Source: a virus (taxonomy: Duplodnaviria > Caudoviricetes). Taken from it: a stretch of DNA of 55,124 nucleotides. Where the stretch lies: the IMG/VR virus record IMGVR_UViG_3300027747_003429, positions 1 to 55,124 of that record. The stretch is one strand, 5' to 3'. This document shows positions 3,264-38,519 of the stretch, one piece after another. Position numbers and translations under genes: made by a program. The notes under the pieces were generated by a model. That model was not told the DNA's origin. It worked only from the letters and a program-made list of their open reading frames with translations, and searched no databases. Position 1 is the stretch's first letter; the number at the start of each line of letters is the position of its first letter.

Positions 3264-3454
3264 ATCTTTTCTTTGTTGCCTTTTCGATAGCTTCGTTTTC
3301 TTCTTGCTTTTGTTTTACGAGGCGTTTAAGAAACCATATTCTAATTTTGACTGGCAAATTATAGGCCTCTGTAAAACTCCAGCCACCGTGATATTTTAAT
3401 AAGAAAAACTGTTCGTAAACGTTTTCTATATATTCATCACTTAGGCCAAAAAAA
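3262..3454 (-). CDS. Baseplate hub/tail assembly chaperone C-terminal part (T4 gp51-like), probably reached by frameshift
   Basis: YEQFFLLKYHGGWSFTEAYNLPVKIRIWFL motif; no credible start or SD; frame opens across the T7 run at the end of the upstream gene. Confidence 0.6.
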
Positions 3455-4291
3455 GTCCACCGTAAAGGGCACCTCCATCTCCTGTTCAAAGGAGCATGAA
3501 GAACAAGTGAATTGTTGCTTCATATCAATATTTGGAGTTATTTCACGATATAGACTTCTTAGTGTCTTGGCATCAATAGCTGGCAAATTTTCTATAAATT
3601 GCTTTAAGAATGTTTTATCTTTGTTGCCATTAACAGAAACAACATAAGCTTTCATCTGAGAAGTCGATAACTCTTCTGGAAGATTCATCTTCTTTCTCTT
3701 CTCTGCCAACTCTGCGATTTCGGTTTCATCTTTACCATTCAACAATCTTACTTCAACGCTTGATCTTGTTTTTGGTAATTCGATTATGAATGTATTGTTT
3801 TCTGTTTTTGTAAGACCTATTTCTTGTGGGTTATCGCAACGATGAATATTTAATTTTTCTAGATCAAAGTCGTGTTTGGCATTAGTACCGCAACTTGGAC
3901 AAGTTATAGCGGTCTTGTATGAAGAACCATAGCCGGAAATACGTGAAGCAACTATAAGTGCGTTCTTATCTCCAACTAGTAAATTATCTACCTTAATTGA
4001 TTTATCAACTATAAGACTTTCCAACATTCTGTCGATAGCCACGCCTTTTTTAATAAGTGAGCGTGAGGTAAGAATGTCTTCCTCTTTAGCTGTCATAAAT
4101 TTAATTTCAACCTTATCTTTACCACGAAGCGGATGACCTTCGGCATATAATTCGCCTTTTGATGGCAAATCAACGAACTCTGTTGGTGCCACAAAGCTTA
4201 GTGGACTTGCTTGTGCTGTTTGAACTGGCATCTGAGCTGCTGGAGCTTCTGCTTGCGTTAAAGCACCTAATCTATCTTCATTATCTCTCAT
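3437..4291 (-). CDS. Baseplate hub subunit / tail assembly chaperone (T4 gp26-like)
   Basis: VDLPSKG, FMTAKEEDIL, two CxxC pairs (CPSC, CSSC), internal repeat (ELPKTR..VEVRLLNGKDE), ends DFFWPK; GAGG SD. Confidence 0.7.
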   Translation of the reverse strand: MRDNEDRLGALTQAEAPAAQMPVQTAQASPLSFVAPTEFVDLPSKGELYAEGHPLRGKDKVEIKFMTAKEEDILTSRSLIKKGVAIDRMLESLIVDKSIKVDNLLVGDKNALIVASRISGYGSSYKTAITCPSCGTNAKHDFDLEKLNIHRCDNPQEIGLTKTENNTFIIELPKTRSSVEVRLLNGKDETEIAELAEKRKKMNLPEELSTSQMKAYVVSVNGNKDKTFLKQFIENLPAIDAKTLRSLYREITPNIDMKQQFTCSSCSFEQEMEVPFTVDFFWPK

Positions 4292-10953: not shown

Positions 10954-11634
10954 TTATAATGCACCTGGTGGTGTAAAATTGGTTGTATATCTTCCAGTAC
11001 CTTTAGTTATTCTTAAATCATCAATATATCCACTAAAATCTGCCAAATTACCTTTTCCTATTCTAAATCCATCCAAGCCAGGATTTGAATATGTGTAATT
11101 TTTTATATCTGTAAATGAATTTTGTAATATTCCATCAAAATATATTTTTACATTATTTGAATTTCTACTAATAGCTACATGATGCCATTTATTATCTAAA
11201 ATAGAAGAACATGAAACAGCCCATAAATTTGTTGAATTATAAGAATCATTCCATCTTAAATCAGAATTTTGTATTAGCAATCCCCAAAATGTACCACCAG
11301 ATAACTTTGCTGGGTTCATTATATTTCCATTGGATGAACTTGATTTTATCCAAAACTCAACTGTAAAATCTCCTGTTCCAAATGCAAAAGCAGAACTGGT
11401 AGAAGAGTCAATGTCCAAATAATCTCCATTTCCATCAAAATATAAACTTGAACCACCAAATTTGCTTTGAGCGGTGTTTATTACAGCATTTCCATTTGCT
11501 GTTACAAAAAAATTGTTATTACTACTGTCAACAATATTTGTACTACCATTTGTTGCATTACCTTTTAATAGCAATGTAACATTTGTAAAATATGGTTCTG
11601 AATTTTCTGCTTGTGATTCACTATAAAAAAACAT
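10954..11634 (-). CDS. LamG/concanavalin A-like lectin-domain virion protein
   Basis: SSLYFDG, DFTVEFW, WHHVAISR, GYIDDLRIT, YTTNFTPP motifs; AGGAG SD. Confidence 0.8.
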   Translation of the reverse strand: MFFYSESQAENSEPYFTNVTLLLKGNATNGSTNIVDSSNNNFFVTANGNAVINTAQSKFGGSSLYFDGNGDYLDIDSSTSSAFAFGTGDFTVEFWIKSSSSNGNIMNPAKLSGGTFWGLLIQNSDLRWNDSYNSTNLWAVSCSSILDNKWHHVAISRNSNNVKIYFDGILQNSFTDIKNYTYSNPGLDGFRIGKGNLADFSGYIDDLRITKGTGRYTTNFTPPGAL

Positions 11635-11737: not shown

Positions 11738-14038
11738 TTATAATGAACCGGGCGGAGTAAAGTTAGCAGTATATAATGCGACATTTTTGGTGATTCTAAA
11801 ATCATCTAGATATCCTTTATACCAGCCTTGTGGACCATACGTTGAAGCATCTTGCCAGTATCCACCTATTGTTGGTGCGTGTGATGGATCAGAATCAAAC
11901 GAACGTGTCCAACCAGTAATTGTATTTTCCAAGACACCATTAAGGAAGATTCTTATAGTAGAATTCTGTCTTGTAATTGCTATATGACTCCAAGTACCAA
12001 ATGGAATATTGGAAACTGTATTATATTGTAAATTTGCTACTCTATGATAAAAGCCAAATTTTCCATTAGAAAATCTAAATAGATATCTGTTTGTAGCACT
12101 TGTTGTGGCGCCATAGCTTGCATATATTATTTTACTTGTTAAACTGGATGAAATTGGATTACACCAGAATTCAAGAGTCCAATCGGAATTACCGAGATTT
12201 AATGGAGGATAGTTAACAGCGGAACCGGTTCCAACGTTCAACAAATCAGTAGAACCATTAAAATACAAGCTTGAACTACCATACTTACTTTGGTTAGAAC
12301 TAATGCTGGCACTTCCTACGGTAGTAACAAGAACACCATTTGGACCACTATCAGACATGTATATCTGACCACCAAGTCCGTATGTATAGGCATCACCTTT
12401 TAGTAAAACAGAAGTATCACCATAATATACTGGCATACCATCGCCACTTATATTTATTGATTTATTCGTGCCTCCGGAGGAACTTAATGTTAGAACTGCT
12501 GATTTAGAACCGGTTGTTGTTGGCGCAAATGTGCCAGAAATTGTTTGCGTACCACCGGCTGTTATATTAAACGAGCTTGGAGAGAAGCTAAATTGATTTG
12601 AATTATTACTTAATGTGACTGCTTCTGTTCCACCTAAACCACTTGCTGCTACAGTAAATGTATTTGAACTGGTTTTATTGATTTCGGTTTGCGCAAAATT
12701 TAGAGCACCAATACTAAATCCTATTTCAAGTGGTCTATAAATACCAGAACCTGTTAATGAAACATTCTTAACGCTACCGCCAGATGAAGATAACGTTAAT
12801 AAGCCAAGTTTAGAACCAGTTGAATTTGGTGTAAAGTATGTTGTAACCAACTGATTTGAGCCACCAGTTAAACTAAACGAACTTGGTGAAAAATCAAACT
12901 GATTAGAATTATCACTTAATACAACGGTTTCAACCGCACCGACTCCTCCGGCGGAAACCGTGAGTGTTGCTGATGAAGTTTCATTAACATAACCATTTCC
13001 AAAATTAATTTGTCCAACACTTGAAGTTAATACAAGTGCTCTATAAATACCAGAACCTGTTAAGGCAATATTCTTTGTGCTTCCACCAGATGAACTCAAA
13101 GTCAAAGTAGCATTCTTTGTGCCTGAACTACTTGGTGTAAATTTAGCAGTAACAGTTTGGCTTGAACCACCACCGATCAAACTAAATGAACTTGGCGAGA
13201 AATCAAACTGATTAGAATTATCACTTAATGTAACAGTTTCTATTCCGCCAATACCGCCGGCTGATACTGTAAATGTTGCTGATGCTGTTTCATTAACATA
13301 TCCACTACCAATATTAAGACCGTTAACGCTTGAAGTTAATACAAGTGGTCTATACAGAGCAGAACCATTTAGTGATACGTGCGCCACATCACCACCGCTA
13401 GCTGATAATGTTAATAAGCCAAGCTTTGAACCACCGGAAGTTGGTGTAAAGTATACTGTGACAGCTTGTGTTTGATTTGTTCCAGTCATACTAAATGAGC
13501 TTGGTGAGAAATCAAATTGATCTGAATCATCAGCAAGGAGCACTATATCTTGAACTCGGCCACCAGCAGAAACTGTAAATGTCGCACTCGATGTTTCATT
13601 TACGTAGGCACTGCCAAGATCAAGTATTCCAGCACTTGAAGTTATTATAAGTGGGTCAGCAACACATGTAGCGGCCAAACTTATTTTTTTTGTACTACCA
13701 CCGACGGCTGATACAAAAATACTGCCTGTTTTTATACCCCAGCTTGTAGGATTAAATGTTACAGTAATAACTTGATTTGTAACACCAGGAGTCATCGTAA
13801 AAGATGATGGCGAAAAACTAAACTGATCAGTATCGCCTACTAGTGTTACTGGTTCTATTGAAATTATATTTGGCGCTGCGCCGGCAGTTAAAACAAACGT
13901 TGCTTGACTGCTGGAGCCAATACCGACTGAATCAAGAGCCAAAGAATTCTTGCTTGACGTTAATGCCAGCATTACAAAACTTTGAGTATTATAGTTTTGT
14001 TGCTGTGAATTATCATCTGGTTCTGCGTAAAAAAACAT
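11738..14038 (-). CDS. Ig-like (ASH/Cep192-type) repeat plus LamG-domain virion protein, Hoc-like decoration candidate
   Basis: Five ~105-aa repeats (QFxFSPSSF...V.F.P...G.K...L.LSxSGG) then a LamG domain ending YTANFTPPGSL; directly downstream of the major capsid gene. Confidence 0.7.
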   Translation of the reverse strand: MFFYAEPDDNSQQQNYNTQSFVMLALTSSKNSLALDSVGIGSSSQATFVLTAGAAPNIISIEPVTLVGDTDQFSFSPSSFTMTPGVTNQVITVTFNPTSWGIKTGSIFVSAVGGSTKKISLAATCVADPLIITSSAGILDLGSAYVNETSSATFTVSAGGRVQDIVLLADDSDQFDFSPSSFSMTGTNQTQAVTVYFTPTSGGSKLGLLTLSASGGDVAHVSLNGSALYRPLVLTSSVNGLNIGSGYVNETASATFTVSAGGIGGIETVTLSDNSNQFDFSPSSFSLIGGGSSQTVTAKFTPSSSGTKNATLTLSSSGGSTKNIALTGSGIYRALVLTSSVGQINFGNGYVNETSSATLTVSAGGVGAVETVVLSDNSNQFDFSPSSFSLTGGSNQLVTTYFTPNSTGSKLGLLTLSSSGGSVKNVSLTGSGIYRPLEIGFSIGALNFAQTEINKTSSNTFTVAASGLGGTEAVTLSNNSNQFSFSPSSFNITAGGTQTISGTFAPTTTGSKSAVLTLSSSGGTNKSINISGDGMPVYYGDTSVLLKGDAYTYGLGGQIYMSDSGPNGVLVTTVGSASISSNQSKYGSSSLYFNGSTDLLNVGTGSAVNYPPLNLGNSDWTLEFWCNPISSSLTSKIIYASYGATTSATNRYLFRFSNGKFGFYHRVANLQYNTVSNIPFGTWSHIAITRQNSTIRIFLNGVLENTITGWTRSFDSDPSHAPTIGGYWQDASTYGPQGWYKGYLDDFRITKNVALYTANFTPPGSL

Positions 14039-31193: not shown

Positions 31194-33791
31194 TCAAATA
31201 TTCACCTTGGCAAAACCGCCAGATGATTCAATAATTATCTGTTCATCAACAATGTCTTTTAGGGCATCCAAGTGCGAAATAAGGATAATTGCTTTGAACT
31301 GATTCTTAATCATATCAATAATTCTTACGAAACCTTCCATGTTTTCTTCGTCAAGAGCTGTTGCTGGTTCATCCAATACGAACAAATCACCAACTGGCAA
31401 ATTACTGACTTTGATTAGTGCCAAACGAATTGCGATAGCAGCGATGCTCTTTTCTGCTCCCGAACCCAATTCAATTGGTCTTGGATCATATTTTGGATGA
31501 CGAATATAGATATCCAGTTTCTTGCCATCGTCCTCGAAAAAGATCTCAAAGTTAACAATGTTGGATAGAATTTTGGCAATCTCTTGATTGATAACTGGAA
31601 GTCTTTTCTTGATAATGTCATAAACAATACCGTTGCTATGCATCGTCTTCAAGAACAGATCATAAGCAAGAAACTCATCACGTAAATTAGCTAATTCAAC
31701 CTTTTCACGTTCAAGAGTTTCTTTTTTATTTACCAATGAACCATGTTCACGATAAAGTTTTTGACTATCACTTTCACAGCCTTCTAGAACAGTTTGAGCA
31801 AGAATAATTTTTGAATTAATATCCTTTTGTTGCTCTTTGATTTGTAATAATTGATTCATCCAAGCTTCATTTTCTTGATAAACTTTCTGTAAGTTTTCCA
31901 ATTCTAAAAGCTGTTGTTGGCAAGAATTGATTGTGTTCTTACCTTTTTCCATTTTTAGATTGAAATCTGAAATTTCTTTGTCAAGAAGATGAAGACTTGA
32001 ATTTAATTGTTCAAACTTATTGATGTGTTTTAAGGTTTGATCATTCCTGACCTTCTCTTCAACTTCTTTTAAGAGTGTTTCATTCTGTAATAATTCTTTT
32101 TCTGTCTCGGGAACAAGTTCACGCTCTTTTGCAGCGTCAACAAGAAACCGACAAGAAAGGAATTCATCACCACAAGGAACATTATCAAGAATAGAAATCT
32201 TTTTCTGTTGTTCTTTTTGCTGTTTCTGCAGCATTTTAACAGCAGATTCCAAAAGAACAGCATTCTTATTTAATTTTTCTAGTTCTTTTTTATCGTTTTT
32301 TAGTTTCTCAAAGTCATATTTTGATAAAGCTTCATTTAGTTGAAGCAGAACAGGCTGACGCTTATCGATCTCTTTCTGAAATTCACCGTTCTTATTCTTA
32401 ACTGTAACAATTTCTTGCTGTTTTACTTGAATATCCTTTTGAACTTTATTGATATCAATAAATTCCTGTTTTGGACCAGCAGCAATTTTAGCTTTTAGCT
32501 CTGAAAGACTGATTTGGTGATTATGCAAATCATCTTTCAATTCTAAACATTTACTTTTGTTGCGTTCTGTAAGAATTTCATTATCAATAATGTCTGTTAA
32601 TGTTTTCGAGATTTCAGCATCAAAATCCTTGCCTTCCAAACGCTTGATTGCGCCCTTCAAAAGAGCACTTTCATCTTTGGCAAGTTTGAATTTCTTATCA
32701 AAGTGTTCTAAATCAAGGAACTTACCAAGAATTTCTTTACGCTTTGTTGAACCTTCATTAATAAATGCTAATGAACCAACCTGACTTGTCATTGAGGTTA
32801 AGAGGAAATCATCAATAGAACCAAAAACACGACGAATGTTTGCGTCAGTTTCGTTTCTATCTAGACCATTCAAACTTTCTTTTTCGCCAGTAGCGTTATC
32901 TACTGAACTAAAATCAAGTGAAGTTTTTGCTTCAACTGTTTCTTCACCATACAACTTCTTGGTGTATTTCTTTGCTTCACGAACAATCTTATATGTCTTG
33001 TTATCAATTTCAATTTCTACACAACCAGAAGCTTCTTCGCGGTTTTGGTTGATAATATCAACATTCTTACGAACGTTCTTTGAAATAGAATTGAAAATTG
33101 TCCATAGAATAGAATCAACTACACTGGATTTACCACTGTAATTCTTGCCAAAGATACCGAGAACACCATTAACGTTTGAAAAGTCAACAGAGTTATCTGT
33201 TCCGTAATTAAACAGATTGTTCCATTCGACCTTCTTCAATTTCCAATGAACGTTACGAGCAACATCATCACTTTGCTCCGCAAGTGTATTGTATTTACGG
33301 TTGAATTCAAATACCTTTTGAAGAACAGTTTCATTTAGCTTATAATCTTTAAGATATTCACCAATAAGCTTTTCCTGAGTTGCGATATCACGAAGGTTTT
33401 CGTGCTCAACTTCATTTGAAAGTTCTTCAACTGAAATGCGCTTTCCCGGCTTGTTCTGGACCGTTACTGATTCGGGTTTAAATCGATTTTTAGCGATATC
33501 TACGGATTTTTTGAGTGCTTGTAGGGAAATATGATTATTCGAAACCAGACGCAATTTAGCGCCTTCCTGAACATCAATATTCTCCGGTAAATTACCATCC
33601 GATTCCAACTCAATTGTAATAAATGGAGATGGATGAGGGATAGAGATATGTTCTACTGAAAATGCATCTTTATCCTGGATGTTCCAAATTAGGAAACCTT
33701 TATCGTTTGTTTCACCAAAGTTCTGTTGTACGGTACTTCCAGGATAAATCGCGCGATGTAGTTTCTTTTTAATTTTAATCTTTTTTTTCAT
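31194..33791 (-). CDS. sbcC: SbcD(Mre11/gp47) C-terminal part fused to SbcC(Rad50/gp46) ATPase
   Basis: N-terminal YPGSTVQQNFGE..KGF (end of the phosphoesterase fold), Walker A GKNYSGKSS, coiled coil with central PCGDEFLSC, signature GSGAEK, Walker B FVLDEP, ISH. Confidence 0.88.
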   Translation of the reverse strand: MKKKIKIKKKLHRAIYPGSTVQQNFGETNDKGFLIWNIQDKDAFSVEHISIPHPSPFITIELESDGNLPENIDVQEGAKLRLVSNNHISLQALKKSVDIAKNRFKPESVTVQNKPGKRISVEELSNEVEHENLRDIATQEKLIGEYLKDYKLNETVLQKVFEFNRKYNTLAEQSDDVARNVHWKLKKVEWNNLFNYGTDNSVDFSNVNGVLGIFGKNYSGKSSVVDSILWTIFNSISKNVRKNVDIINQNREEASGCVEIEIDNKTYKIVREAKKYTKKLYGEETVEAKTSLDFSSVDNATGEKESLNGLDRNETDANIRRVFGSIDDFLLTSMTSQVGSLAFINEGSTKRKEILGKFLDLEHFDKKFKLAKDESALLKGAIKRLEGKDFDAEISKTLTDIIDNEILTERNKSKCLELKDDLHNHQISLSELKAKIAAGPKQEFIDINKVQKDIQVKQQEIVTVKNKNGEFQKEIDKRQPVLLQLNEALSKYDFEKLKNDKKELEKLNKNAVLLESAVKMLQKQQKEQQKKISILDNVPCGDEFLSCRFLVDAAKERELVPETEKELLQNETLLKEVEEKVRNDQTLKHINKFEQLNSSLHLLDKEISDFNLKMEKGKNTINSCQQQLLELENLQKVYQENEAWMNQLLQIKEQQKDINSKIILAQTVLEGCESDSQKLYREHGSLVNKKETLEREKVELANLRDEFLAYDLFLKTMHSNGIVYDIIKKRLPVINQEIAKILSNIVNFEIFFEDDGKKLDIYIRHPKYDPRPIELGSGAEKSIAAIAIRLALIKVSNLPVGDLFVLDEPATALDEENMEGFVRIIDMIKNQFKAIILISHLDALKDIVDEQIIIESSGGFAKVNI

Positions 33792-34635
33792 ATTTTGAGC
33801 CTTTGGCTAAATTTTCTTCCCAAGGTATAAACCTTAAATTACTAATGTCACCTATTACTTCTGGTGGAATATCGTTTAATAGACCATATGAAACAGGTAT
33901 TATATGGTCTAAATGATAAGCACTTTCATCACCTGTCTTACCTCTTTTATCAGAATTTTCTAAAAGATGTAATGGCTGACTCTCGCTTATTCTTCTAACT
34001 TCTTTATAATATTTTTCTTTCTGTGAAAGCTTATTTTGGTATTCTTCGTATGATATACCTAACATCGTTTCTATTAGAGTTATTCTTCTTTTCTCTATTG
34101 TTTCTTTATCTATTGCTTCTAATGCTATTTGATAAGATGTTTTACCATATTTTTCTATACATATTTTTTCACATTCATCTCTATATGTTTGAGAGGAAAA
34201 AGGATGCTCTGTTCCATACTTTTCTAAACTAAATTTTTTTATACTTTCTTTTCTCTTTTTATCGGCCTCAGGATCGTGTCCTACGGGATGTTCTAGGGAT
34301 TTAGAAGCCTCTTGTCTTGAAAAAAGAACTTTTTCCGCATATTCAATATTTTTCCATTTATTTTTCATAATAATAGACATTTTATTTTTCCATTCTTCTG
34401 TATGGAAAGAACAATTTGTATTGCCTATCATCAGATTTTTTTTATCTTCATCAACACATTTACGAGAGCAATATTTGTTTTTTTTTGTTTTTCTAATAAA
34501 AAAAGGATTTTTACAAAATATACAAATTCTTTCATCTCTATCGATTTTTGGTTTTTTATAACCAATATGTTGGCATTTTTCGGAACAATAAATTTTATTT
34601 TTAGTTTCTACTTTACAAATTTTACAAATATTCAT
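33775..34635 (-). mobile_element. Free-standing HNH homing endonuclease gene inserted in sbcD
   Basis: Two CxxC...YCSxxC Zn modules, NUMOD3-like HTEEWKNKMS, KYG repeats, C-terminal HLDHIIP...NL...EN..KG; visibly more AT-rich than flanks; separates the two halves of SbcD. Confidence 0.8.
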
Positions 34636-34690
34636 CTTCTCTCCATATCTGCTGTATTATAAGTAGTAAATACGAAGAGAAAAATATCTA
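34625..34690 (-). promoter_or_regulatory. RBS-sequestering hairpin with late promoter in its loop (HNH gene control)
   Basis: TAGATATT-TTTCTCTTCGTATTT pairs with AGATATGGAGAGAAG-(ATG bulge)-AATATTTG; loop holds ACTACTTATA. Confidence 0.7.
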
Positions 34691-35347
34691 TTCTTGTACA
34701 ATTTCCCAGCCATTTTTTAAGTATTTTTGAAGTTTTTCTTCTTCTACTTCCAATATTACTTCTTGTGCTTCGTCTACTCCCTGATTTGTTTTATGGATAT
34801 CACCAAGAAAACAATAATCAAAGCCTTCAAAAATAGAAACATCGTGATCACCGTGATCCATAACGTATCCCATGTCTGTTTGAACACCAGATACAGAGCC
34901 GTGATAAAGGGCAATATTAATGTTGCTTGGATCACTAATTTTCTCCCAATTTCCTTCATCAAAGATAGAAAGGACATTAAGAGTAATTTTATCATTAATT
35001 GATACTTCACCTGAATCTTTTAATAGATGAAGATTGTTGTGCTGTAGTGCCTGAACAATTGGTGTAATAGCATCCTGACGACCACCATTTTTAAGGTTGC
35101 CGTCGTGATTTCCCAACAGAACATATGTTGGAGCAATATCTGCTAGATTCTTCAAAAACTCCGTTGCTAGTTCAAAGAATTCTGGGCTTAATTGTGTTTT
35201 AGTGTGTGCGATATCACCACAATGAACAATATAATCTACTTTTTGTTCACGTAATGAATCATAAATTTTTGAGAAGATTTCACGATATTCTTTGTGAAAT
35301 TTTAGGTTTCGAATATGTGTGTCACTTAGATGTGCGATTTTAATCAT
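34688..35347 (-). CDS. sbcD: SbcD/Mre11 (gp47-like) metallophosphoesterase, N-terminal part
   Basis: SDTH, GDIAH, GNHD, LYHG, GDIH motifs; stops before the YPGS motif, which starts the downstream-expressed ORF. Confidence 0.88.
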   Translation of the reverse strand: MIKIAHLSDTHIRNLKFHKEYREIFSKIYDSLREQKVDYIVHCGDIAHTKTQLSPEFFELATEFLKNLADIAPTYVLLGNHDGNLKNGGRQDAITPIVQALQHNNLHLLKDSGEVSINDKITLNVLSIFDEGNWEKISDPSNINIALYHGSVSGVQTDMGYVMDHGDHDVSIFEGFDYCFLGDIHKTNQGVDEAQEVILEVEEEKLQKYLKNGWEIVQE

Positions 35348-35502
35348 TTTACCACCATTTCATCAATGAAATAATTTTCTCTGCGGTTTCTGGAATCTTT
35401 TGAATGTTGATCGGCAAATTTAATTGCCTTTTCTTTGCTATCGAAAACAGCTAAAATATCGCTGGCATTATGCCAACTAATTGAAACAATATATACTTTC
35501 AT
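35344..35502 (-). CDS. Small hypothetical protein (52 aa) MKVYIVSISWHNASDILAVFDSKEKAIKFA...EMVVK
   Basis: Not in the ORF track; TAATG overlap with primase and ATGA overlap with sbcD; common phage MKVY.V...ILxVFDSKEKA pattern. Confidence 0.7.
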   Translation of the reverse strand: MKVYIVSISWHNASDILAVFDSKEKAIKFADQHSKDSRNRRENYFIDEMVVK

Positions 35503-36440
35503 TAAATCACCAACTTGAATGCTTTTTGGATAAACGAGTCTTGTGTCATTAGGGTTGCTCGTTTTTTACGACGTGAAAATTCAAGTGTAGACATTTCACC
35601 AACATCTTTATACCCCGTCACATCAATCTTGTAAAGCTCTACGTCATATGACATTAAGCTACGAATAAGATACATCGCTTTCTTTTCTGCGTCTGGATCG
35701 AGTGCAACATAAATTGATGTGTCGTGTTTAACAATTTCCTGAAATAATTTTGAATCTTCACGAAGTGTTGAACCCAAAATAGGAATTGCGTTTCCTGCTT
35801 TAATCGCATCAAACGCACCTTCAACAAGAGTTAAATCACTTTTCCAATCAACAAACAGTTCATTAAATACGATGTCTTTACTTACTTGTGGATTCATATA
35901 ATTTGGTCTTTCACCTGTATAAGAACGTGCCACAAAGTAATTACAAAAACCATCTTTATTGAAGGATGGAATAACTACACGATTTTTATATTCACCTTCT
36001 TTACAATAACCAATTTTCCAACGAACTATATCTTCTTTTTCTAATCCACGTTCTTGAAGATACTTCATTGGTTCTCTGGCAGAATATGGTAAATCTTTAC
36101 CTGTTAAAGAAATAAATTCTTTTGGTAAAGAAATACGGTGTTCTTCTTCTTTCTTTGTTGGAAAAAGAATATCTGTAAGAGACTGATTAATCTCTACATT
36201 ACCAGTTAAAGTTTCCCAAATATGTTTCTGCGAGAAATTTCCATATTTGCGGACAAGACGAGATAGATTTGTTCCTTTAAAATCACAAATCCAGCATTTG
36301 AAGCAATTCTTTTTAATATTGATAGAAAGCTTTTTCTTTTCATGTTTACACTTTGGACAATAAAAAAGTAATTCCCCACCTTGTCGGAGGGGATTACCTA
36401 AAATGTCGATCACGATTTTTGTTTTTTGATCAGCTGACAT
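35502..36440 (-). CDS. dnaG: DNA primase (Zn finger plus TOPRIM)
   Basis: CPKC...CWIC Zn finger, YLQERG, NRVVIP, VEGAFD, LDPDA, KDVGEM; start reassigned to ATG 36440. Confidence 0.88.
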   Translation of the reverse strand: MSADQKTKIVIDILGNPLRQGGELLFYCPKCKHEKKKLSINIKKNCFKCWICDFKGTNLSRLVRKYGNFSQKHIWETLTGNVEINQSLTDILFPTKKEEEHRISLPKEFISLTGKDLPYSAREPMKYLQERGLEKEDIVRWKIGYCKEGEYKNRVVIPSFNKDGFCNYFVARSYTGERPNYMNPQVSKDIVFNELFVDWKSDLTLVEGAFDAIKAGNAIPILGSTLREDSKLFQEIVKHDTSIYVALDPDAEKKAMYLIRSLMSYDVELYKIDVTGYKDVGEMSTLEFSRRKKRATLMTQDSFIQKAFKLVI

Positions 36441-36479: not shown

Positions 36480-38519
36480 TCAAGGAATTGCGCCAGAAAT
36501 AGCAAATAATCGTGCTGCCAATCTATCAATAGCCGATTTAACTGTTGTTGGAGCCGAACCAGACCAATTTCCTGGTGTTGCTGCTGTGTAACTTATATTT
36601 GAACCAGTTATTGTTGTAAATAAAGCTGTTGAGCCTGTTACAGTTGAGCCAGTTACTGTTGTTGCAGTTACAGTATTTGCTCTAACTATATCAAAATCAG
36701 CGATTGAAGGTATATTGGTACCCAATGTTGAAGCAGTTTTATTAAAAACTGAATTTGAGTAAGAGAACAAGCCACCTATAGTAACTTTTGTTGCGAGTTG
36801 ATTAGTGTCTAGAGTTGTTGAATCAACCATTACCACTACACTACTTGGCGATATTGAAGTAACTGCTGGACCGCCACTACTAGTAGCGACAACAGCACAA
36901 TCATTTATTCCTAATGTTCCGGAAATAACAACTGGAGAATATGTTGTAATACTATCTCTAATAGTTACAAATGCATTTGGATTATTTATTATAAAACTAG
37001 AACCACTTGTTGATTGATTTCCACCTTGGAAAGAAGCAAGCCCGCCACTAATAATTAAAATATCTTTATTAAAATCGGTATTTGTTGCTTGGAAATAAGC
37101 AGTTGTTGCTTTTGTAAATGTATTATTTACTTTACAATCTTCTATATATAAACTTCCTGTTCCGCTATGAACCAAGTTGTTTACTGCGATACCAAACAAT
37201 CTTATAGAAGAACCCGGAGCAATAGATTGTGAAATGGTCATTGTTCCAGAAAAATTAACTTCTCCACCATTTGAGCCTTGTGCGGCACAAATCGTAGTAT
37301 TAAACTTACTCATTGTCACATCTTCAATAAAAGTGCCTGGATGTAGAACAATTTGGTCACCACCTTGTGTTGAAGCAGCAGAAATGGCAGCACCAACTGT
37401 TCTATATGGACTTAATAGCGTTCCATTACCAGTAATATCATTACCACTGCCAGTTGAAACGTGCCACTCTCTCGCATAAACGTTTGAAGAAGCGGTTACA
37501 ACCGCACTACCAGATATTACACCATTATTTATTGTAATATTTGGACCTGCGCTAAATTGCGCTCTTACATCATTTGTGAATGTGGCAATTGCTGAACCGG
37601 TTGCTACATAAGAAGCGGTTGCTGCCGTTGTAGCAAAGCTAGCAGAAGTTGAATTGGCTGCGAAGCTAGCTGATGTTGAATTCGTAGCAAAACTAGCTGA
37701 TGTTGAACTGTTTGCGAAACTAGCTGATGTTGAACTGTTTGCGAAACTTGCTGACGTTGAATTCGTAGCAAAGCTAGCTGATGTTGAATTCGTAGCAAAA
37801 CTAGCTGATGTTGAACTGTTTGCGAAACTTGCTGACGTTGAATTTGTAGCAAAGCTAGATGATGTTGAATTGGTTGCGAAGCTTGCTGATGTAGCAAAAC
37901 TTGAACTACCAACCAAATCTCCCTTAAATGAAGCGGTAACAGAATTAAAGTTTGCTGTTGTTCCCGACATTTCAGCAGAAGCAGTTAATGCTCCACTTAC
38001 ATATAAACCTGGAAATATTTGAAGTTTGTCGTAGGCATTTACATATCTTACGTGGGCATTGGCGCCCTGATCGTCGATTGTTGGACCAACGCCACCACTT
38101 CCCCATAATATACCGGCACCATCAAGACCAACGTGCTCTGTACCGCCACTCATTACAGTTATAAATTTATCACCAACTTTTAATGATGATTGACTTATTG
38201 TGCTCAAAAGAGCGATACTGGCTGTGCCATTAACAACCAAATTGCCTTGTATAAAAGCTGCGCTAGCAGTTAAGTTTGTGGTTTGTAAATTAGTTAAACC
38301 AGTTACATTTGTATCTAACGAAAGAGTAACACTTCCACTTGAACCACCACCAGTTAAATTTGTTCCAGCATTAACGTCGGTAATATCACCACCACCGCCA
38401 CCACCAGAAGCAGTGCCAGCAACCCAATTGGTGCCATCATATACAAGTACGTTGCCACTTGCTGGAGCGACTGGTGGAGTTGCTATACCTTTTGTAGAAA
38501 AGCCGTCATTAAAACTCAT
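36480..38519 (-). CDS. Tail fibre/spike protein with beta-helix-like C-terminal domain
   Basis: GDITDVNAGTNLTGGG, FTNDVRAQF modules; WHVSTGSGND..GNGT...PYRTV..AI and LHPGTF.E start of a pectin-lyase-like fold. Confidence 0.65.
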   Translation of the reverse strand: MSFNDGFSTKGIATPPVAPASGNVLVYDGTNWVAGTASGGGGGGDITDVNAGTNLTGGGSSGSVTLSLDTNVTGLTNLQTTNLTASAAFIQGNLVVNGTASIALLSTISQSSLKVGDKFITVMSGGTEHVGLDGAGILWGSGGVGPTIDDQGANAHVRYVNAYDKLQIFPGLYVSGALTASAEMSGTTANFNSVTASFKGDLVGSSSFATSASFATNSTSSSFATNSTSASFANSSTSASFATNSTSASFATNSTSASFANSSTSASFANSSTSASFATNSTSASFAANSTSASFATTAATASYVATGSAIATFTNDVRAQFSAGPNITINNGVISGSAVVTASSNVYAREWHVSTGSGNDITGNGTLLSPYRTVGAAISAASTQGGDQIVLHPGTFIEDVTMSKFNTTICAAQGSNGGEVNFSGTMTISQSIAPGSSIRLFGIAVNNLVHSGTGSLYIEDCKVNNTFTKATTAYFQATNTDFNKDILIISGGLASFQGGNQSTSGSSFIINNPNAFVTIRDSITTYSPVVISGTLGINDCAVVATSSGGPAVTSISPSSVVVMVDSTTLDTNQLATKVTIGGLFSYSNSVFNKTASTLGTNIPSIADFDIVRANTVTATTVTGSTVTGSTALFTTITGSNISYTAATPGNWSGSAPTTVKSAIDRLAARLFAISGAIP
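37620..37905. repeat. In-frame 27-bp tandem repeat (about 10 units) encoding SASFA(T/N/A)(N/S)ST
   Basis: Unit gctgatgttgaattcgtagcaaaacta and variants repeated head to tail inside the fibre ORF. Confidence 0.9.

Follow-up and report, generated by a model that had tools for sequence, protein, structure and literature searches.

A fractured SbcD–SbcC gene in a T4-like phage fragment, interrupted by a putative homing-endonuclease cassette that carries oppositely charged peptide tails

Genes that are split in two by a free-standing homing endonuclease have been described in phages and in a metagenome, and the closest of them provide the frame for the locus considered here, a fractured SbcD–SbcC (Mre11–Rad50) gene on a virus record of 55,124 nucleotides (nt) (IMG/VR record IMGVR_UViG_3300027747_003429, positions 1 to 55,124; this whole stretch of DNA is termed the window). 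In Aeromonas phage Aeh1, the free-standing HNH-family endonuclease mobE splits an enzyme gene, in Aeh1 an essential one, into nrdA-a and nrdA-b, giving the same kind of arrangement as in the window; there, too, the halves carry unique, insertion-derived tails of opposite charge, and RNA structure restrains translation of the endonuclease (PMC3045599). As Crona et al. (2010) report, split NrdA cannot do without these tails, which derive from the cassette and carry opposite charges, and they constitute a solution distinct from both RNA and protein splicing, which may be a general one; the same authors raise the idea of a degenerate intein and point to gp39/gp60 (PMC3045599). The enzyme is a different one, however, and the polarity is reversed, the upstream tail being basic (pI 10.4) and the downstream tail acidic (pI 3.8). 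Moreover, the Aeh1 tails are reported there to be experimentally essential for dimerisation of the heterodimers and not for the joining of the halves (PMC3045599). Finally, the nrdA split is known from one phage, whereas the SbcD split is a widespread polymorphism, accompanied by turnover of the endonuclease and by apparently healed alleles.

With regard to the gene affected, the nearest precedent is an intein-less locus from the Lake Gatun metagenome described by Dassa et al. (2009), in which two SbcD-like open reading frames (ORFs) lie on the same strand with a free-standing endonuclease between them, as in the window (PMC2677866). Its inserted residues, 25 C-terminal and 9 N-terminal, stand beside consecutive conserved motifs and flank the break as they do here, and the 3′ end of its endonuclease gene overlaps the downstream start codon, again as in the window (PMC2677866). 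The endonuclease of that locus is given as ‘Vsr-like’, as opposed to HNH-like in the window, and the break points and tails of the two are compared by description only (PMC2677866). The account concerns one locus and, in its passages on that locus, proposes no role for the inserted residues (PMC2677866); in the window, the C-half is in addition fused to SbcC. In T4 topoisomerase II (gp39/gp60 with mobA), an insert of ~ 70 amino acids (aa) lies in the TOPRIM domain, its structure having been solved on an artificially fused gp39–gp60, and the cassette also carries a 50-nt ribosomal bypass (PMC11461880; PMC2988022); the 2024 cryo-EM study calls this insert an ‘assembly bracket’ (PMC11461880). The phage genes fractured by split inteins have an identical order and spacing, as described by Dassa et al., namely N-part, extension, a spacer of 27–51 nt with a hairpin, endonuclease, overlapping extension and C-part, and electrostatic complementarity between the extensions has been proposed (PMC2677866). 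Those extensions are halves of a Hint domain which ligate the host protein (PMC2677866), whereas the tails of the window total ~ 45 aa and have no splicing residues.

The type of fracture was already published between 2009 and 2011, and, judged by its layout, the window locus belongs to the structural class formed by Aeh1 nrdA and the SbcD-like locus of Dassa et al. A preliminary description of the window, which had presented its tails as a novel third way of neutralising an insertion, besides introns and inteins, was anticipated in this regard, since the idea is stated for NrdA in Crona et al. (PMC3045599) and an intein-less SbcD-like split is reported in Dassa et al. (PMC2677866). What appears to go beyond the cited papers, no literature search having been aimed at these points, is the breadth of the polymorphism, the occurrence of three nuclease types at one site, the stub and healed alleles, the mapping of the break onto the turn of a hairpin and the single-chain nature of the SbcD–SbcC protein. 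On the evidence set out below, it is probable that the two halves are made separately and re-form the nuclease non-covalently, with the tail and the head acting as a clasp, and that the cassette has spread by homing.

The window comprises an entire IMG/VR virus record, with an estimated completeness of ~ 29%. It carries T4-type capsid, portal, terminase, sheath, tube and baseplate genes and is a fragment of a T4-like myovirus. The break lies between GDIHKTNQ and YPGSTVQQ of the SbcD–SbcC gene, and all parts of the split locus are on the minus strand. They are listed here together with their relation to the closest relative, locus L004.

34688-35347, minus strand: SbcD/Mre11 N-half ORF, 219 aa, ending ...GDIHKTNQGVD followed by EAQEVILEVEEEKLQKYLKNGWEIVQE (8 Glu) and TAG.
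34780..35347, minus strand: core of the SbcD/Mre11 N-half, codons 1-189, with the metal-binding motifs up to GDIHKTNQ (Pfam Metallophos; 84% DNA identity to L004 down to 34780).
34688..34779, minus strand: acidic N-tail, cassette-borne, 30 codons GVDEAQEVILEVEEEKLQKYLKNGWEIVQE plus the TAG stop codon (no DNA homology to L004 here).
34636..34687, minus strand: 52-nt spacer, with a predicted hairpin that pairs with the GGAGAG ribosome-binding site of the endonuclease gene (RNA folding).
33775..34635, minus strand: putative free-standing homing-endonuclease gene, 286 aa, with Cys-rich N-terminal repeats, a DUF7487-like middle and an HNH-like C-terminus (family matches).
33747..33791, minus strand: basic C-head, cassette-borne, 15 codons MKKKIKIKKKLHRAI with a new start codon (L004 homology resumes only at 33746).
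31194-33791, minus strand: C-half ORF, 865 aa, beginning MKKKIKIKKKLH (7 Lys), then RAIYPGSTVQQNFGE.
31194..33746, minus strand: rest of the C-half, comprising the last SbcD strands and the capping domain fused to an SbcC/Rad50 ATPase with coiled coil (Pfam AAA_23, SMC_N; 81% DNA identity to L004).
33747..34779, minus strand: whole mobile cassette (tail, spacer, endonuclease gene and head), 1,033 nt (BLASTN against L004).

The start of the C-half overlaps the 3′ end of the endonuclease ORF by 17 nt (33775-33791), and all of the counts in the preliminary description are correct, namely the eight Glu and seven Lys residues, the 52-nt spacer and the 17-nt overlap.

The identity of the broken gene can be read from both halves. 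With 54.9 bits to Pfam Metallophos (cut-off 21.5), the N-half is identified as a calcineurin-like phosphoesterase. From protein searches and the loci, 36 of 334 rows were classed as split N-halves with a tail, or 34 distinct ones after removal of the duplicate pairs window/P0001 and L071/P0066, and across these 34 the residues D9, H11, D45, N80, H81, H149 and H185 are invariant. It is this domain and these invariant metal ligands, together with a fold match made on the homologue L034 and not on the pieces of the window, which place the N-half with SbcD/Mre11. On the other side of the break, the C-half matches AAA_23 (42.7 bits) and SMC_N (54.6 bits) in Pfam, and the predicted model of a relative, P0150, has long helices over residues 584-942, all as expected of SbcC/Rad50. 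Since the C-half, which runs for 865 aa to position 31194, carries the whole SbcC/Rad50 ATPase, the broken gene is a single-chain SbcD–SbcC (Mre11–Rad50); the preliminary description, which had named it SbcD, was right that the gene is split but captured only part of what is broken. Indeed, SbcD and SbcC are usually one polypeptide in this phage group (proteins P0121-P0269), with a length of ~ 1,020-1,090 aa in most of the 150 best representatives. The copy in Microcystis phage Mel-JY01 is annotated only as ‘AAA domain containing protein’, and one literature search on phage Mre11–Rad50 fusion or single-chain proteins gave nothing relevant among the matches listed.

That the split is real and not a chance pattern of ORFs follows from relatives which encode a continuous protein at this place. 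Mel-JY01 has one ORF of 1,066 aa across the break point, reading ...GDIHKMQYMDTERRLAYPGS..., and shares with the window the order primase, small ORF, SbcD–SbcC. In IMG/VR, 593 stretches encode relatives of the N-half, and among the best 80, to which the allele counts refer, the gene runs without a break in 75, where a loop of 9 residues joins GDIH(K/E)T(N/D)Q to Y.GST. The acidic tail is absent from these 75 short-loop loci, such that the comparison with uninterrupted homologues that had been proposed at the outset places the tails inside the cassette which replaces the loop. The gene of locus L044 is likewise uninterrupted, with a slightly different short loop, and that of L034 and L036, which have identical genes, is uninterrupted but has a long insert; L004 and L071, and also the huge-phage record LR756508.1, are split at the break point of the window. 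A megablast search of the locus against phage records gave no match. Among the short-loop alleles, GDIHKTNQ and Y.GST.QQN.GE hardly vary at their first and second codon positions, and such a stretch would be the kind of target expected for recognition by a homing endonuclease.

The edges of the cassette emerge from the comparison with L004. BLASTN aligns the window to this relative over 35358-34780 at 84% and over 33746-30897 at 81%, and leaves 34779 to 33747 without a match. What differs between the two is therefore an entire block of 1,033 nt, which runs from the tail through the spacer and the endonuclease gene to the head. The interval claimed beforehand, 33750..34780, nearly equals this cassette (33747-34779). 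In L004, the block has another version of the tail, VVQEMSIEEKEIDEEELPLYIEQGWIKK, a LAGLIDADG gene (above the Pfam cut-off) and another version of the head, MSKIKIIRKKPYFV. The ORF at the break point of L071 is 50% identical to the endonuclease of the window, and the break in LR756508.1 holds a TnsA-like PD-(D/E)xK nuclease, the Cys-rich N-terminal repeats of which resemble those of the window. Three nuclease types thus occupy one break point, HNH-like (window, L071), LAGLIDADG (L004) and TnsA-like PD-(D/E)xK (LR756508). A second slot for endonucleases lies nearby, in that L004 has a GIY-YIG/NUMOD3 gene at 3301-4008 between the primase and SbcD, a place where the window has an unrelated 52-aa ORF (35344-35502).

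The gene in the gap had been called an HNH gene at the outset. It has family matches to phrog_5104 (1.4e-20) and to phrog_3339, ‘homing endonuclease’ (E 3.6e-4), and the match to the HNH profile itself is weak, at 12.6 bits against a Pfam cut-off of 21.4. In a PDB profile search, the ORF matches solely HNH chains, weakly, at an E value of 0.8; an HLDH...N...N pattern is present, and the L071 homologue matches phrog_6050, ‘HNH endonuclease’, at 5.9e-5. The HNH label is, in other words, weakly supported by these profile matches. Relatives of the HNH-like domain were found in seven further viral loci, all of which lie away from any SbcD gene, and no similar tails were noticed on inspection of the ORF lists of six of these (all except L202). 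Upstream of the gene, the fold of positions 34620-34700 gives the spacer hairpin a stability of -20.7 kcal/mol (z -4.57), with none of 200 shuffled sequences equally stable, an arrangement like that described for mobE and in the passages on fractured genes in PMC2677866. A scan for sigma-70 promoters and terminators near the cassette gave nothing above shuffled sequences.

A continuous protein could conceivably be restored from such a locus by splicing. A cmscan (Rfam) search of positions 33000-35600 at E values up to 10 found no intron family, returning four chance snoRNA/lncRNA matches only, and the DNA of the cassette outside ORFs amounts to just 52 nt. A split intein consists of Hint-domain halves, with a Cys/Ser at the N-junction, and His-Asn plus Cys/Ser/Thr at the C-junction, and totals ~ 130 aa or more. 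The junctions of the window have no Cys/Ser/Thr and no His-Asn, the tail beginning with E after GVD and the head ending LH before RAIY; no intein or Hint match was found in Pfam on the split halves, and the tail and head total ~ 45 aa, too short for a Hint domain. Furthermore, tail and head are together ordinary coding sequence of one ORF in L034. A split intein was rejected for want of splicing residues, length and a Hint match, and a group I or group II intron for want of a covariance match and of non-ORF DNA and given the coding tails of L034, such that the absence of introns and inteins claimed in the preliminary description is upheld; for its further suggestion, that of a degenerate split-intein relic, no evidence was found in this analysis. 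Against this background, it is barely credible that a continuous protein is regained through an intron that splices itself and went undetected, through a degenerate intein or through long-range ribosomal bypass, even though the succession of short spacer, endonuclease gene and overlap is the layout reported for split-intein fractured genes (PMC2677866) and Crona et al. entertained a degenerate intein for NrdA (PMC3045599): the known bypasses, as noted by Dassa et al., span tens of bases and not hundreds (PMC2677866).

It is also very improbable that the fractured gene is dead, i.e. that the cassette destroyed SbcD–SbcC and the phage copes without it or uses that of its host. Long intact ORFs for both halves persist across many diverged lineages, and the catalytic residues are invariant in the 34 split N-halves, as described above. 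Moreover, between the window and L004, two split alleles, the non-synonymous (dN) and synonymous (dS) substitution rates are 0.088 and 0.656 for the N-core, and 0.067 and 1.05 over the first 400 codons of the C-part, corresponding to dN/dS ratios of 0.13 and 0.06. Purifying selection acts on both halves.

The tails themselves are conserved. Among the 34 aligned split N-halves, Q189, L206, G213 and W214 are each found in at least 90%, and the tail after KTNQ has 27-35 residues with a net charge of -3 to -10 (mean -6.8). The GW motif, which is followed by 3-7 residues, occurs in 31 of the 34, the exceptions being the three most distant, P0204, P0210 and P0235. These three N-halves (220-231 aa; core identity 42-47%) have a different acidic tail, ...IEIIEE, and may represent an independent fracture of the same site, or a tail family that is older than is apparent. 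On the other side of the break, 14 C-halves of 852-874 aa begin M.K(K/R)(I/Y)K(I/V)(R/K)K, with K6 invariant and K4 and K9 in at least 90%, and the net charge of the head is +5 to +9. The opposite charges proposed in the preliminary description thus hold across the family. A search with the tail alone among longer proteins gave three candidates, none significant, this being a weak search that is silent on the frequency of unsplit tail-bearing forms. A degenerate DNA pattern for GWE(I/V)VEE matched at least 117 stretches in viral contigs, with three real instances among the matches listed (L113, L161 and L176, the last a piece of L071). A locus search with a tail-weighted alignment re-found, among the matches listed, only the contig of L034 with a tail, and an ESM Atlas search with the tail/head module gave no usable match.

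The unsplit allele L034 provides a natural fusion of tail and head on which a structure could be predicted. AlphaFold2 was run on its residues 1-390 with a 70-row alignment in which the split halves were entered as separate rows, and the resulting model has a mean predicted local distance difference test score (pLDDT) of 90.1 and matches Mre11/SbcD structures (3tho_B, E 4e-14; Staphylococcus aureus SbcD, 7dog_A, 1e-12). In the model, the insert is predicted to form a strand (197-200), a helix (203-211), a strand (215-218, EIVE), a turn at E219-N220 and two further strands (221-224, KIRK, and 228-231), and the two-residue turn is where the split alleles end and restart. The β-α-β-like character attributed to the tail beforehand is thus recovered by the model, as strand-helix-strand, turn and strand with the break at the turn, at moderate confidence. 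In the second unsplit relative, P0150 (1,089 aa), AlphaFold likewise recovers the helix and the next strand. Other unsplit relatives, more distant ones, have 13 ‘medium’ loops and inserts of 17-50 residues in the loop (P0264, P0214 and P0221 are among these forms); the hairpin is therefore a surface element of naturally variable length.

As for the mechanism, the normal gene of this phage group encodes one polypeptide of ~ 1,050 aa, in which an SbcD/Mre11 nuclease is followed by a fused SbcC/Rad50 ATPase, and in the window the 1,033-nt cassette has taken the place of the 9-residue surface loop between GDIHKTNQ and YPGSTVQQ. The 30 codons and stop of the cassette would complete the N-half with an acidic strand-helix-strand tail, the spacer hairpin would restrain translation of the endonuclease, and the new start codon of the cassette, followed by a lysine-rich strand, would head the C-half. 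The two polypeptides would be translated separately, with neither RNA nor protein splicing, and would rebuild the phosphoesterase fold through non-covalent contacts. Across the break, a β-hairpin would form between the acidic ...GWEIVxE strand and its basic KxKxK counterpart; in other words, the two strands would serve as a clasp. Homing presumably starts with a cut by the endonuclease in the cassette-free short-loop allele of a co-infecting relative, into which it would be copied together with the tails.

On their sequence pattern and the predicted hairpin, the acidic tail and the basic head probably help the halves to fit together. The clasp role is nonetheless the weakest link of the mechanism, and several points weigh against it or against the wider scheme. 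In split NrdA, the one precedent with experiments, the tails are not needed for binding of half to half (PMC3045599), and a clasp may therefore be the wrong role here too. The lysine-rich AAA codons after the start codon could be selected for translation and not for binding. The pLDDT of successive blocks of the L034 model over residues 181-240 is 82, 68, 84, 78, 67 and 58, and with values of 58-84 the clasp region is to be read with moderate confidence. In P0150, the basic segment 218-230 falls below a pLDDT of 50, such that the hairpin is not reproduced, although a region predicted with such low confidence neither supports nor refutes a clasp. Finally, both the family assignment and the activity of the endonuclease are putative.

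Several of these points are also what a tolerated surface loop would lead one to expect, in which case the interface of the native fold would hold the halves together, and the tails would be kept for their stop and start codons, for their Lys codons, for control of the endonuclease or for disruption of the target site. The dispensability of the NrdA tails for heterodimer formation, as Crona et al. report it (PMC3045599), the variable loop length of distant unsplit relatives (the 13 ‘medium’ loops and other long inserts such as that of P0264), the P0150 model with no confident structure for the basic segment and the A-rich character of the head are all compatible with such a loop. It accounts poorly, however, for an amphipathic pattern with L206, G213 and W214 kept across diverged N-halves and K.K.K across the 14 C-halves, for tail and head charges that are consistently opposite, and for the recurrence of the same tail/head design beside three unrelated nuclease genes and in apparently healed alleles, which require neither a stop nor a start codon there. 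A tolerated loop is therefore considered unlikely, though not negligibly so, and the clasp remains the preferred role.

The history of the site can be followed in alleles in which the endonuclease has been lost or exchanged. L161, an L034-like allele, retains ~ 130 nt from the 3′ end of an HNH-like gene, with ...GWEIVEE-IV-stop-stop on one side and MTKKYKIRKAQC on the other; exactly this stretch is missing from L034, which reads in frame ...GWEIVEE-N-KIRKAQC. The L161 stub is bounded by a GAAGAAA(T) repeat (L161 2003-2171; L034 4630-4649), which encodes Glu-Glu in the frame of the tail and Lys-Lys in the frame of the head. L034 looks like the product of a deletion between the GAAGAAA repeats, with a one-base adjustment that keeps the frame. 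Between L161 and L034, 69 of 186 N-core codons differ, as against only 1 of 33 tail codons and none of 10 head codons. L034 is read as a healed allele, the reverse order of events also being possible.

The tails are, moreover, decoupled from the backbone on which they sit. The nearest core to that of the window, L004, has an identity of 0.90 and a tail of only 0.30, and the tails most similar to that of the window, those of P0011 (0.80) and P0007 (0.74), sit on cores of 0.65-0.68 (0.65 for P0011). On a FastTree tree of 301 N-cores, 39 of which have the long insert, this state requires 23 changes, as against 34-38 in ten of 200 shuffles, the count being a rough figure since the N-core tree is short and poorly resolved. 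No signal of a long co-conversion tract was found in the N-core, where the identity of split–split and split–unsplit pairs differs by -0.017 to +0.011 in 11 windows of the alignment. Contigs of related strains in two sequencing runs, X1, which may be the window's own source, and X4, join 33728 to 34780 and have 44 other letters where the window has 1,051; allowing one letter of slack in the alignment, we infer that this junction is that of a short-loop allele with no interruption. In a third run, X3, the stretch 33779-34739 is replaced, on a 5.7-kb contig from a related phage, by 757 other letters between similar tail and head ends, and these could be another type of endonuclease or a decayed one. 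The tails do move with the cassette, as the preliminary description held for tails and endonuclease together, but they outlast any one endonuclease, given the three nuclease types, the stub and the healed alleles. It is possible, although somewhat doubtful, that the tail/head pair is a long-lived split mini-domain which has outlived its original endonuclease, serving as a landing pad for exchanged HNH-like, LAGLIDADG and PD-(D/E)xK genes, moving between backbones as a unit and open to in-frame re-fusion that leaves an insert of ~ 31 aa. Were this the case, the mini-domain would be a natural, portable and non-covalent ‘split tag’, and would offer selfish DNA a way of adding new peptide modules to enzymes.

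The locus would represent a clean natural case of a selfish endonuclease lodged in an essential-looking repair gene that survives the insertion, the cassette bringing its own stop codon, start codon, control hairpin and oppositely charged peptide pair. It extends one published SbcD-like locus and the NrdA experiments to a population-level life cycle of endonucleases at one site, with dozens of split alleles, three nuclease types, a decayed stub, apparently healed alleles and uninterrupted alleles in the same sample. Many natural variants of what may be a short split-protein clasp are thereby available, with no new kind of biology opened.

Elsewhere in the window, two ORFs beside the major capsid gene (10954-11634 and 11738-14038) have concanavalin-like lectin (Laminin_G_3) and Ig-like ASH/HYDIN-type domains, and their products may decorate the capsid or the fibres. 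An ORF of 679 aa (36480-38519) adjacent to the primase gene, which has no Pfam match, contains long runs of near-repeats, SASFATNSTSASFA..., and its product is probably a fibre protein.

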